Shown here: positions 1 through 12,088 of the stretch, one piece after another
How positions within the stretch are numbered: the stretch's first letter is position 1
Layout: each line of letters begins with the position of its first letter
Sequence record: MW929183.1
Strand: one strand, 5' to 3'
Origin: Escherichia phage FS2B
Length of the DNA stretch: 18,619 bases
The notes under the pieces: model-generated
What the model was told of the DNA's origin: nothing
Databases searched by the model: none
What the model saw: only the letters and a program-made list of their open reading frames with translations
Made by a program: the position numbers and the translations under genes

Positions 1-610
1 AGATTAGAACGAGCACTAGCAGCATTTTTAGCTCCAGTGCCTCCTCTTTCAACACCTAGAGCCAAATCGCCAACTCTTCCAGGCGAGGTACTGTAACATC
101 CCCACCCATTATTATCCACAAAGAGGTAGGTTTCTTTGTTAGGAGATAGTAATCTACTCTCCCCAGAGGCTTGATCAACTCTATCTATAGATAAATTGGA
201 ACGAGCAGCATCAACAGTAGTTGCCCCTGTACCACCATTAGCTATAGGAATTGTGTTGAGTGTAGCTATGGAGCTTAGACCTAGATTAGAACGAGCACTA
301 GCAGCATTTTTAGCTCCAGTGCCTCCTCTTTCAACACCTAGAGCCAAATCGCCAACTCTTCCAGGCGAGGTACTGTAACATCCCCACCCATTATTATCCA
401 CAAAGAGGTAGGTTTCTTTGTTAGGAGATAGTAATCTACTCTCCCCAGAGGCTTGATCAACTCTATCTATAGATAAATTGGAACGAGCAGCATCAACAGT
501 AGTTGCCCCTGTACCACCATTAGCTATAGGAATTGTGTTGAGTGTAGCTATGGAGCTTAGACCTAGATTAGAACGAGCACTAGCAGCGTCTTTAGCTCCA
601 GTGCCTCCTT
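1..610. repeat. 282-bp tandem direct repeat inside the tail-fibre gene: copies 1-282 and 283-564 identical, third copy from 565 diverges after ~45 bp
   Basis: Direct comparison of 1-282 with 283-564 shows identity over the full unit. 282 = 94 codons, so the repeat is in frame and encodes a duplicated 94-aa module. Copy number to the left of the window is unknown. Confidence 0.9.
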
Positions 611-2944: not shown

Positions 2945-3457
2945 TTAAGCAGGTGTTACACCAGTAAAAGTGCATGTTGCATTGATGGACGGGTCAGCTG
3001 TCAAACTTGCTTGAACAGTAACTTCGCCACTTGCAGCAGCATCTAATTTTAACGAATTATTAGCGCTTATTGTACCAGCTTCTACGGGAGTTACAACAAG
3101 TGTGTAATCATCAGCAACAGAATTGGTTACAGTAAACATGGTGTTGAAGTTAGTGGTAGTACCACCTACTTTACCTGTAATTGGCCCACGACTCACAATA
3201 GTAGGAGCAGGAGCAACAATTTCAGAAATGGTTGCTGTACCAGAAACACCTTCTAAAGTTGCAGTAATGGATACATCAGTGGATTGAGACGCACTCGGAG
3301 CAGTATACAAACCCGACTGAGTGATAGAACCACCTCCTGTCACTGACCAAGTAAAGCCAGTTGTTTCGGTAGAACCATCACTTTTCTCCGCGCTTGCAGT
3401 GAACTGCCGAGTAGCCCCTGTCTCTAGACTTGCTAAAGACGCAGGGCTAACAGTCAC
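2945..3457 (-). CDS. Ig-like domain ORF (T/S/G/A/V-rich, beta-rich), probably expressed as a C-terminal extension of the major capsid protein by -1 frameshifting rather than independently
   Basis: Track ORF begins at GTG 3457 with no SD and no ATG. Its reading frame stays open upstream to 3548, overlapping the last ~26 capsid codons in the -1 frame. Composition resembles bacterial Ig-like decoration domains. Confidence 0.6.
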   Translation of the reverse strand: MTVSPASLASLETGATRQFTASAEKSDGSTETTGFTWSVTGGGSITQSGLYTAPSASQSTDVSITATLEGVSGTATISEIVAPAPTIVSRGPITGKVGGTTTNFNTMFTVTNSVADDYTLVVTPVEAGTISANNSLKLDAAASGEVTVQASLTADPSINATCTFTGVTPA

Positions 3458-3468
3458 ACTGTCTACTG

Positions 3469-4527
3469 TTACGCCGCCACCTTTCCCGCAGCAGTGAACA
3501 GAACGCCGGAAGCGTACGGGTTGCGGTGACGCAGACCAACTTCCATTTCAATCATCCACTTCTCGTAAGAACCGTCTTTAGCCAGTTCAGTACGTTTCGG
3601 AGCACGCAGAACCATCTGAGTCCAGTCAGCGCTACGGAAGAAGTAAACTGCATCGGTAGGCATCCAACGGTTAACGATGATTTTGTAGCTCTGGCCCAGC
3701 GGGTCAGTGATGCTATTAACTTCGTAGATGAACTGCTTGGTGTTCTCAAAGATACGCTTACGTGAACCCTGAGTATTTTCTTGCAGACCAGCAAAGATCT
3801 TAGCATGAGCCGGGTTAATCATGATGATATCTGCTTCAGAACCAGCGGTATACAGTTGCAGAGTCATATCAAAGATATCAGCTTCGTCGAAACCAATGTT
3901 AGTGGTCGGGTTAGAAGCATTCTGTGCAACTTTAACAGTTACTGCACCAGTATCCGGGTCAGCAGGACCATTCTTGGTCTTGTCAACAACGCCACCAGCC
4001 AGACCACCGTGAGCACACAGGAACTGGAATGCACCAGTCTTACGAGCTGCATGGGTGTCATTCAGACCAACAACAGCAGGATCAGTTGCAGAGTTAGTCA
4101 GGTACTGGTCAGCCAGAACGTCGGTACGAGCCTGACCGGACAGAAGGATTTTCTCGAGGTCACGCTTGATCTCTTTACCTTTCTTCTCCAGCTGATACAT
4201 CAGTTCACGACCACGACCGTAGTTAGCGGTGGTGTTAGCAGTATCAGAAACACGAACAACCTTACGCAGAATCTGAGTAACGTTAGATTTGATAACAGTC
4301 GGTTTCATTTCGCCGTCTTCAGCACGAGAGCCTTCGACGTGTGCGTTATTACCGTCAACGCTTGCCAGTGCATCGGTCTGCCAGCTAAAGATAGTCTGGT
4401 TAATAGACTCTTTACCGGTCATAGATACGAACGGGGTATCCTGAGGGGACAGAACAGAAATCCAGTTAGCAAAAGAAAGTTTTTTACCATTCTGGTCATA
4501 CGATACAAATAAAGTTGGATTAGCCAT
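3469..4527 (-). CDS. Major capsid protein, 352 aa
   Basis: ORF directly after the scaffolding gene in the terminase-portal-scaffold-capsid order. ATG 4527, AGGAG ~10 nt upstream, stop TAA at 3469-3471. Size suits an HK97-fold coat protein. Assignment is by synteny and size, not a homology search. Confidence 0.75.
   Translation of the reverse strand: MANPTLFVSYDQNGKKLSFANWISVLSPQDTPFVSMTGKESINQTIFSWQTDALASVDGNNAHVEGSRAEDGEMKPTVIKSNVTQILRKVVRVSDTANTTANYGRGRELMYQLEKKGKEIKRDLEKILLSGQARTDVLADQYLTNSATDPAVVGLNDTHAARKTGAFQFLCAHGGLAGGVVDKTKNGPADPDTGAVTVKVAQNASNPTTNIGFDEADIFDMTLQLYTAGSEADIIMINPAHAKIFAGLQENTQGSRKRIFENTKQFIYEVNSITDPLGQSYKIIVNRWMPTDAVYFFRSADWTQMVLRAPKRTELAKDGSYEKWMIEMEVGLRHRNPYASGVLFTAAGKVAA
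3481..3487 (-). other. Candidate -1 programmed ribosomal frameshift site G GGA AAG in the capsid frame
   Basis: Capsid zero-frame codons GCG GGA AAG GTG GCG GCG TAA. The heptamer GGGAAAG fits X XXY YYZ and matches the slippery sequence used for lambda G/GT. A possible hairpin (AACAGT...ACTGTT, or ACAGT-GUG-ACUGU) starts ~9 nt downstream. Confidence 0.5.
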
Positions 4528-4568
4528 GTTATGTTAGCTCCTATACTATTAATAATTTAATTTGTCGA

Positions 4569-5645
4569 TTAATCTACGAGGAATTTGAATGCGTCTTCGT
4601 GACTAACGCGACCCTCTGCGAATGCCTTGGCAACCTTAGCGTTGTCGGGCTTATTGGAAGTGCGAGACTTTGCAGCATCAGACTTCACAACCTTGCGTGG
4701 AGCACCGGGACGTTTAATCTTAGCCATCACCTGTTGCTTACCTTTATCAAATTGGTATGCTTTATGGAGAGCTAGGAAAATAGACGGACGGTTTTCCTTC
4801 AATACTTCTTCTTCAGTAGCACCTAAGTCAATTGCGTATTGCATTAAGTTTTGATATAAGTTTTCATCCCAATTTGGAATCTCACGTTTCAGAATATTAA
4901 CACATTCAATACTCTTGGCTTGGAAAGCTTCCTGCTCTTTAGCTGCTGCTTCCTGCTTAATACGGACCTGAGCCTGTTCAAGCTGTTGACGGCGAGCTGT
5001 GTACTTCTCTAGGAAACGTTTGTTTTCAACATATGCTTGAGGATCTTCTACTGCAAGCTTGTCCCAATCAAAACCGTTATAATCTTCAATTACTCGGTCT
5101 GCTTCTAAAGACGCTAGTTCTAATACATCCTTCAAACCTACTACACGTTCCTCGAATGCTTCCATATGACGCTGAAGAGTTGATTCTCGTTCTGTCATAT
5201 CAGCACCAGTAAGATAGCCATTAGAAAGTTCTTCAATAGTCATCTCACGTCCATCAGGAAGGGTGATAACGGTTTCGTAGTCTACATCAAAGACTTCACC
5301 TTCACCGTCAGCAGAATCATCTTCATACTCTGCATCGCTTGAATCTTCTTCCTCTTGTTCTTCTGCTTCAGAGGATTCGTCTTCATCTTCTTCGACTTCG
5401 CCTTCCTCTTCACGATCTTCCCAACCATCTTCATCTTCGAACTTAAGCTCATCGCTTTCACCGAGAAGGTCGGTATCAAAGTCGAAATCGTCACCGTCTT
5501 TTTCCGGGAACTCATCGTCAATGTCCACTTCTGGTTCTTGTTCAGATTCTAATCGACCGAGTTCTTCTTTGAAAGAACCTTTCAGGTCATCCAGTTGGAG
5601 GAAAGATTTAAAATCGTTCGGGTCAATATAATTATCTTGTGGCAT
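4569..5645 (-). CDS. Scaffolding protein, 358 aa
   Basis: Very acidic low-complexity N-terminal half (runs of E/D) and helical, coiled-coil-like C-terminal half, positioned between portal and capsid genes. ATG 5645 overlaps the upstream stop by 1 nt (TAATG). Confidence 0.65.
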   Translation of the reverse strand: MPQDNYIDPNDFKSFLQLDDLKGSFKEELGRLESEQEPEVDIDDEFPEKDGDDFDFDTDLLGESDELKFEDEDGWEDREEEGEVEEDEDESSEAEEQEEEDSSDAEYEDDSADGEGEVFDVDYETVITLPDGREMTIEELSNGYLTGADMTERESTLQRHMEAFEERVVGLKDVLELASLEADRVIEDYNGFDWDKLAVEDPQAYVENKRFLEKYTARRQQLEQAQVRIKQEAAAKEQEAFQAKSIECVNILKREIPNWDENLYQNLMQYAIDLGATEEEVLKENRPSIFLALHKAYQFDKGKQQVMAKIKRPGAPRKVVKSDAAKSRTSNKPDNAKVAKAFAEGRVSHEDAFKFLVD

Positions 5646-9746: not shown

Positions 9747-9775
9747 GTTTAAAAATAGAAAAGGGAAAGTCCCTT
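9747..9775 (-). terminator. Hairpin plus U tract between small and large terminase genes
   Basis: Minus-strand RNA AAGGGA-CUU-UCCCUU followed by UUCUAUUUUU, ending just before the terL SD. Confidence 0.35.
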
Positions 9776-11441: not shown

Positions 11442-12088
11442 CATGTGCTGTGTTTAAGCTTTCCACATTTACTACATCTCCAAGTGGACTTATAAAGGGT
11501 GTGAACTCTTTCATCCCCGTAAGCTTTGCGTATCCGATAGTACTCATGATCACATTTGAATTGCTTAATGATTAACTTAATTTTCCACATAAGTTCTCTT
11601 TCAACCTTATATATAAGAGTTTAAAATTCTGATTTGACCGAGTGGGGCTAGCCGCTCGCCGCGCGTTTCCTAAAAAGGGGGAGTCCTCATTTAAAAAAGG
11701 GTTATTGGCAATGCCTTTACCTTCCCTTTCAACGTTCCACCTTTCCCCGTGCCTACTCCCCGTAGTTATTCCCCCGTGTATACTACCCAATACATTACCT
11801 ACCCGTTTATTTAGTTCCCCTTTAAAGAGTGAGAGAAAGGCCAGCACTGTATAATGATTAGATTAAGGCACTATGAATAGGCTAATAATACCCATAAGTA
11901 ATAGCCCACATTCCCCATAGTTACGTTGATAATAGTTTCAATAGTAATGATTATGAGTGCAATAATGATATATGTATTAATTAAGTGGAAAGATAGTAAT
12001 TAACAGTTATTATATTCTTTTATTACTTTCTTTTTTCAGCGTACATGAGCGTAGCGAATGGTCTTTGATGTTTGAGTAATGCTATTAA

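Follow-up and report, generated by a model that had tools for sequence, protein, structure and literature searches.

The window analyzed here, a stretch of 18,619 nucleotides (nt) from Escherichia phage FS2B (sequence record MW929183.1), carries on its minus strand a major capsid protein (MCP) gene followed by an open reading frame (ORF) for immunoglobulin (Ig)-like domains in the −1 frame. The analysis indicated, with a probability of about 0.9, that a programmed −1 ribosomal frameshift at the 3′ end of the MCP gene yields an MCP–Ig isoform. This agrees with an original prediction, made from the letters of the window alone, that the Ig-like ORF is fused to the MCP by frameshifting. The support comes from a slippery heptamer conserved in phase, from the coding pattern of the −1 frame and from the lack of conservation of the GTG codon that could otherwise start a separate Ig-like protein. 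Frameshifting of this kind is already known in the phiEco32/Kuravirus group of phages, for which it was published between 2008 and 2023.

Slip site and coding signal in the −1 frame

The MCP gene occupies positions 4527–3469 of the minus strand in the 0 frame (352 amino acids (aa), 38.7 kDa; stop TAA at 3471–3469), and its 3′ end reads GCT GCG GGA AAG GTG GCG GCG TAA. The slippery heptamer G GGA AAG, which had been placed near the end of the gene at 3487–3481, was confirmed there in the X XXY YYZ phase, 9 nt upstream of the MCP stop. The 0-frame codons at the slip site are GGA and AAG, the latter being codon 349, and they are followed by three sense codons (V-A-A) and the stop. In the −1 frame a stop at 3550–3548 is followed by an open stretch that begins at 3547 and ends with the TAA at 2947–2945; the long open frame claimed in the original prediction therefore stands, with its edge moved by one position from 3548. 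A slip at the heptamer would add 178 codons (3481–2948) before that TAA, so that the extension with its stop spans 3481–2945 of the minus strand. It comprises a Gly linker, a first Ig-like domain at approximately residues 5–88 and a second at approximately residues 92–178.

The predicted product of the −1 slip reads ...FTAAGK-GGGVTVDSVTVSPASL..., exactly the translation given originally, and has 527 aa and a computed mass of 55.9 kDa, the earlier value of ~52 kDa for the fusion being ~4 kDa too low. The masses proposed for the unextended MCP (~38 kDa) and for a product started at the GTG (~17 kDa) were close to the computed 38.7 kDa and 16.9 kDa, respectively. Cleavage after K would give the predicted fusion junction peptide GGGVTVDSVTVSPASLASLETGATR, and a Glu-C or chymotryptic junction peptide would contain AAGKGGGV.

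The presence of the heptamer by itself is weak evidence for frameshifting. GGGAAAG occurs seven times on the two strands of the window against 2.0 occurrences expected from shuffles, and 1 of 200 shuffles gets to seven. The other copies are located at 9763, 11741, 13380, 14660, 14773 and 18007. No second in-phase GGGAAAG was found within ten large genes of the window, a check outside which lie, for example, the copies at 11741, 13380, 14660, 14773 and 18007. The same ten genes contain seven in-phase heptamers of the general X XXY YYZ type, and only the one in the MCP gene leads into a long −1 ORF, of 178 codons and reaching 524 nt beyond the 0-frame stop, the other six yielding 0–34 codons.

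The comparison was extended to 15 Kuravirus and two Privateervirus loci from GenBank and IMG/VR together with 10 further Kuravirus metagenome contigs, making 27 loci in total. GGGAAAG was present in phase in all 27 (25 Kuravirus and two Privateervirus), with variable wobble positions nearby, at a distance from the MCP stop of 9–12 nt in Kuravirus and 0 nt in Privateervirus. A 3-nt indel between heptamer and stop preserves the frame relationship. A long −1 ORF of 169–545 codons crosses the junction in all loci except that of phage SU10, so that among Kuravirus loci the window and 23 of 24 others have an intact ORF. Within Kuravirus, the extension changes in length by whole Ig modules, from 178 to 545 codons, with the frame kept; the longer forms, of 370–545 aa, are those of E20-1, Bas86 and Paul, and an isoform of 892 aa was reported in the 2023 paper on phage YF01. 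The extension diverges faster than the capsid protein to which it would be joined (62–98% identity among Kuraviruses versus 93–100% for the MCP).

Closer inspection of the first 33 codons past the linker showed variable sites at 9, 7 and 24 of 33 first, second and third positions, respectively, of the −1 frame. Synonymous and nonsynonymous codon differences over the same codons numbered 449 and 231 in the −1 frame, as compared with 80 and 573 or 31 and 573 in the other two frames. The Ser at codon 8, upstream of the GTG, alternates between AGT and TCC among relatives, and the peptide (Gly/Ser linker)-VTVD(S/T)(V/I)TVSPxS...TGATxQFTA is conserved from the slip site onward. These substitution patterns show that the −1 frame is coding, beginning at the slip site. 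The site combines an in-phase heptamer, an open −1 ORF devoid of initiation signals of its own, conservation and coding selection.

In the mechanism proposed for this site, the majority of ribosomes would read GGA-AAG-GTG-GCG-GCG-TAA and release the MCP of 352 aa and 38.7 kDa. In the others, a minority, tRNA-Gly (P site, GGA) and tRNA-Lys (A site, AAG) would shift back by one base to pair with GGG and AAA, and translation of 178 codons in the −1 frame would then append the Gly-rich linker and two bacterial Ig-like domains to give the isoform of 527 aa and 55.9 kDa. By analogy with the levels quoted in the YF01 paper for lambda G-T (~3.5%) and T7/T3 gene 10 (~10%), slippage might occur with an efficiency of a few per cent. 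The isoform would be expected to co-assemble with the MCP in the prolate head, decorating its outer face substoichiometrically; its Ig modules may serve in surface adhesion, and the stem-loop downstream of the heptamer may act as a stimulator.

Fold of the extension and candidate stimulatory elements

An AlphaFold2 model of the extension, built on 20 sequences, consisted of two β-sandwich domains with a predicted local distance difference test (pLDDT) score of 96.5. In this model strand A of domain 1 is formed by residues 6–12 and spans the GTG at codon 9, so that the Ig-like part begins ahead of that codon. The best Foldseek match was to the tandem Big_2 domains of Leptospira LigA (E = 3.7e-10, template modelling (TM) score 0.58), with others to Big_2-CBM56, the phi29 prohead protein gp8 and RB49 Hoc; by model and structural match, the extension is an Ig-like β-sandwich resembling solved Big_2 domains. 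The extension was also assigned to PHROG 13745, "Ig domain containing protein", in agreement with the Ig-like nature proposed for the ORF at the outset.

A 7-bp hairpin (UAACAGU/ACUGUUA) lies 9 nt downstream of the heptamer, where the original prediction had placed it, and extends to a longer candidate stem-loop, GGC.GUAACAGU-(10 nt loop)-ACUGUUAGCC, at 3475–3445 of the minus strand, which begins 5 nt past the heptamer and has a putative function. Its folding energy of −10.8 kcal/mol corresponds to z = −1.75, with 13 of 200 shuffles folding as well, and among 11 distinct Kuravirus sequences 94% of cells remain paired. The conserved VTV and TVS are encoded by the same arms. In the 7-bp arms third positions are invariant and in the loop they all vary, a suggestive pattern that was noticed post hoc. 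An upstream Shine–Dalgarno (SD)-like motif is not visible in the sequence before the heptamer. As background, no strong stimulator is needed for GGGAAAG in lambda G-T to reach a few per cent.

Two other candidate elements were considered and rejected. The SD-like AAGGUGG overlapping the slip site is not conserved, relatives having AAGGCGG, AAGGTAG or AAGTTGG. A hairpin presenting the heptamer in its loop (CUGCUGC/GGGAAAG/GUGGCGG; z = −2.76 in a 181-nt fold), also described in the SU10 paper, was set aside as a classical stimulator because a ribosome decoding the heptamer has already unwound it; it also competes with the downstream stem.

Alternative explanations and evidence against frameshifting

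The Ig-like ORF might instead be a separate gene, translated from the GTG at 3457–3455 of the minus strand, perhaps by termination-reinitiation, into a free decoration protein of ~17 kDa that binds the capsid non-covalently. This GTG, ahead of which the −1 ORF has no start codon, is codon 9 of the extension and lies 12 nt past the MCP TAA, a spacing compatible with translational coupling. It is the start adopted in most GenBank records, and the closest relatives, like the bulk of the ~100 Kuravirus records, are annotated with two coding sequences (CDSs), the second being called a separate "hypothetical" or "Ig domain" protein. The SU10 structure paper likewise raises the possibility that gp10 is a minor capsid protein of its own that purification removed. 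The annotated starts are arbitrary, however, with gene-caller lengths for the ORF in the databases ranging from 110 to 254 aa. The GTG is replaced by GTA or ATA in 7 of the 15 Kuravirus loci, and the first start codon of the −1 frame falls at codon 9, 16, 34 or 47 according to the phage. The original prediction was right that the ORF lacks an SD site, the best anti-SD match at the GTG giving only −4.8 kcal/mol at a spacing of 11 nt (against −5.9 to −11.4 kcal/mol at 1–7 nt for ATG-started genes of the window), and wrong that it lacks an ATG, since one occurs internally at codon 115. Purifying selection in the −1 frame starts upstream of the GTG and includes the AGT/TCC switch at Ser codon 8. 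Initiation at codon 9 would also remove strand A of domain 1, and initiation at codons 34–47 elsewhere strands A-B, and a separate gene would leave the invariance of the heptamer without a reason. Taken together, the GTG is probably merely an internal Val codon, and a separately initiated Ig-like gene appears very unlikely.

A number of observations nevertheless weigh against a frameshift that operates in FS2B. Detection of the trans-frame protein was reported for relatives only, namely SU10, Privateer and, as cited, phiEco32, and the junction peptide is not quoted in the accounts of SU10, Privateer or YF01. The SU10 mass spectrometry (MS) covered 50.3% of the ~525 aa of the fusion, or ~265 residues, versus 78.1% of the 352 aa of gp9 alone, or ~275 residues. 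Coverage of the fusion is thus no larger than that of gp9 by itself, and these data do not prove the presence of extension peptides; all peptides could derive from gp9, making the SU10 MS evidence for the fusion weak. SU10 moreover has one inserted base and two substitutions at 2598–2608 of its locus (corresponding to window ~3463–3454), 24–33 nt past the heptamer. Its −1 frame ends after 11 codons and the rest of its Ig ORF lies in the MCP 0 frame behind two stops, a broken ORF also reported in the YF01 paper. By cryo-electron microscopy (cryo-EM), the SU10 head contained only gp9, with no extra density and no larger band, and the Protein Data Bank (PDB) contains only the 352-aa SU10 MCP. As to stimulation, a covariation test of the stem-loop in the 11 distinct Kuravirus sequences revealed no compensatory changes and shuffles performed equally, and the 81-nt downstream context folded no better than shuffles (z = −0.85). 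No stimulator is claimed, since the covariation test equals shuffles; of the earlier proposal, the hairpin exists and its stimulatory role is unsupported. Finally, a Pfam scan of the extension returned no Ig family even at E ≤ 10, PF02368 included, and a precomputed PF02368 call is carried by just a few of its database relatives. Because Pfam gave no Ig family, the Ig-like assignment rests on the structure model and PHROGs, and the extension is confirmed as two bacterial Ig-like domains by its modelled fold, not by Pfam membership.

The SU10 data could be taken to mean that the heptamer and open −1 frame are vestigial, with the extension in FS2B not meaningfully expressed or not assembled: SU10 is viable despite a 1-nt insertion that ends its −1 frame so early, and its head holds only gp9. 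This is still less probable than a separate gene, since the −1 ORF has remained intact in the window and the 23 other Kuravirus loci at extension identities of just 62–98%, the substitution pattern is strongly synonymous, and the variation in length by whole Ig modules without frame loss (178 to 545 codons) argues for continuing selection. Transcriptional slippage, in which RNA polymerase stuttering rather than ribosomal slippage makes the fusion, is barely credible: it is favored by nothing beyond the fact that both mechanisms give the same protein, the site runs to only three G and three A whereas productive bacterial transcriptional slippage needs homopolymer runs of ~7–9 or more, the motif obeys the X XXY YYZ tandem-tRNA rule in the right phase, and relatives swap in CCCAAAG, CCCAAAA or AAAAAAG and not longer runs.

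Genomic context, known systems and other capsid lineages

The 1.66-kb region around the slip site shared 99.2% identity with Escherichia phage vB_EcoP_DE5 and 96.8% with phiEco32, and matched 125 phage records, the majority from Kuravirus (Gordonclarkvirinae) coliphages, with nucleotide identity to Kuraviruses of 96–99%. The MCP is 100% identical to that of phiEco32 and matched Pfam PF17236 (SU10_MCP, E = 9e-77) and PDB 7z45_A, the SU10 major head protein (E = 4e-234). The gene order on the minus strand is portal (8134–5891), a small ORF, scaffold (5645–4569), MCP (4527–3469), Ig-like ORF, terminator and adaptor (2843–2091; Pfam PF24175, SU10_adaptor), as in SU10 and Paul. The window thus has an SU10_MCP-family capsid protein inside a portal-scaffold-MCP-extension-adaptor module, which places it with the Kuravirus MCP/MCP-Ig pairs.

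A rho-independent terminator at 2940–2917 of the minus strand, a 10-bp stem then a T run, follows directly after the stop of the extension, and an equivalent is annotated in SU10 and Paul. No strong (G+C-rich) terminator was found between the MCP stop and the extension. A promoter scan of the region gave a single match, a 9/12 site at 3096–3069 inside the extension, no better than shuffles. Since the terminator comes only after the stop of the extension, the MCP and the extension lie in one transcription unit. Scans of the window for tRNA genes and Rfam families gave no matches. Some Kuraviruses, namely MLP3 (3682–4194 of its locus) and Bas86 (4524–5036), have an HNH homing-endonuclease gene between the terminator of the extension and the adaptor, which is absent from the window. 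At the left edge of the window, a tail-fibre gene running off the sequence (1–564, minus strand) contains an exact in-frame tandem duplication of 282 nt (94 codons) with 100% identical copies. The relatives closest to the window span its positions 1–700 with just ~421 nt, implying a single copy of the 282-nt unit; the duplication is either a very recent event or an assembly artefact.

The corresponding genes of the phiEco32/Kuravirus group (gp11-gp12 in phiEco32, CDS9+10 in SU10, gp009 in Paul and gp8 in YF01) share with the window the gene, the heptamer, its position and the −1 Ig-like extension; nothing essential differs, apart from a varying extension length and the loss of the link in SU10. 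In the 2014 paper on SU10, slippage at GGGAAAG was described as joining the Ig-like CDS10 to the MCP "as in phiEco32", and forms of 38.5 and 55.4 kDa were listed by MS. In the RefSeq record of Paul the CDS is annotated as joined, the note reads "Frameshift at GGGAAAG" and PMID 18294652 is cited. The 2023 YF01 paper described the frameshift for the whole Kuravirus-like group. For the Proteus phage Privateer (Privateervirus), the 2021 paper reported the same signal, two capsid bands and detection of the minor form by MS, and named phiEco32 and SU10 as phages in which the product of frameshifting had been observed. Privateer resembles the window in its GGGAAAG, its −1 shift and an extension of 169 aa, and differs in an MCP only 57% identical and in a heptamer that abuts the stop codon (0 nt). 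Its stem-loop, 6 nt downstream (z = −1.80), is unrelated to the stem of the window, and its extension has no BLASTP-detectable relation to that of the window (E ≤ 10).

More distant parallels are found in other phages. The G/G-T frameshift of lambda, which reportedly uses the slippery heptamer G GGA AAG (Levin, Hendrix and Casjens are said to have described it in 1993), is also a −1 shift near the end of the upstream ORF with a low-percentage product. The lambda products are tail assembly chaperones, not virion components, whereas those of the window would be capsid subunits with a surface Ig-like module. T7/T3 10A/10B resembles the window in a −1 shift close to the 3′ end of the gene for the major capsid protein, which gives a minor, C-terminally extended subunit that co-assembles with the major form. 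In T7 the slip site is another one and the extension is short (~50 aa), with no tandem Ig module, and the T7 capsid protein is outside the SU10_MCP Pfam family. A bacterial Ig-like (Big_2-type) fold on the capsid exterior, as predicted for the window, is found in phi29 gp8 and T4/RB49 Hoc; the Ig domain is in-frame on every subunit in phi29 gp8 and Hoc is a separate protein, whereas in the window it is predicted to be substoichiometric via recoding. Ig-like domains on phage structural proteins were reportedly described by Fraser et al. in 2006. Their addition to phage proteins by frameshift is a recognized theme, as cited in the YF01 paper.

Slip sites of other sequence were found in further loci with SU10_MCP-type capsid genes. 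One metagenome locus (L040, ~4520–4810) has a second MCP paralogue, 29% identical to the MCP of the window, with C CCA AAG 3 nt before the stop and a 92-aa −1 extension that shares 60% identity (E = 2e-28) with domain 2 of the extension of the window. Two others have C CCA AAA (L042, ~3535–4190) or A AAA AAG (L013, ~4420–4552) 3 nt before the MCP stop, followed by −1 extensions of 213 aa and 42 aa, respectively. Two to four tandem MCP paralogues occur in Salmonella phage 7-11, APT65, ECO319P1, L013 and L039, and in each such locus one paralogue bears an in-frame C-terminal extension of 58–270 aa, a gene-duplication alternative to frameshifting for obtaining a decorated capsid subunit. Homology between the extension of the window and the in-frame extensions in 7-11, APT65 and L013 was rejected, as BLASTP found none; these loci thus support the architecture only and not common descent of the domain.

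In eight Aeromonas/Lahexavirus-like phage loci (L008–L011, L018, L037, L038 and L043), no X XXY YYZ heptamer was found near the MCP stop, and an in-phase G GTA AAG is conserved ~3 nt before it. The P-site tRNA is unable to re-pair fully at this G GUA AAG. The −1 ORF of these phages has 90–171 codons of Big_2-like sequence with its first start at codon 17 and no SD site, a 6-bp hairpin rich in GC lies 6 nt past the motif in loci of the L008 type, and GenBank records list a short "I-set domain protein" as separate. Judged from these features, G GTA AAG is probably a non-canonical −1 slip site.

The theme common to these lineages, as read from their gene arrangements, is a minority of capsid subunits with a C-terminal Ig-like module. 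A wider reading, put forward tentatively and as somewhat less than probable, is that a substoichiometric Ig-decorated subunit is a conserved trait of the SU10_MCP family reached by interchangeable genetic routes, and that the stem-loop of the window is a genuine stimulator setting the ratio. The routes may include turnover of the slip site (GGGAAAG, CCCAAAG, CCCAAAA and AAAAAAG), in-frame MCP paralogues and G GUA AAG. The frameshift itself brings no new principle; its practical value lies in fixing records, the correct product being a joined capsid isoform of 527 aa and not two genes. The Ig-extended isoform is in no solved structure because SU10, the sole Kuravirus with a cryo-EM structure, has lost the link. 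With the extended isoform, phages that are being developed for E. coli therapy would display Ig-like modules of the adhesion type on their prolate head.

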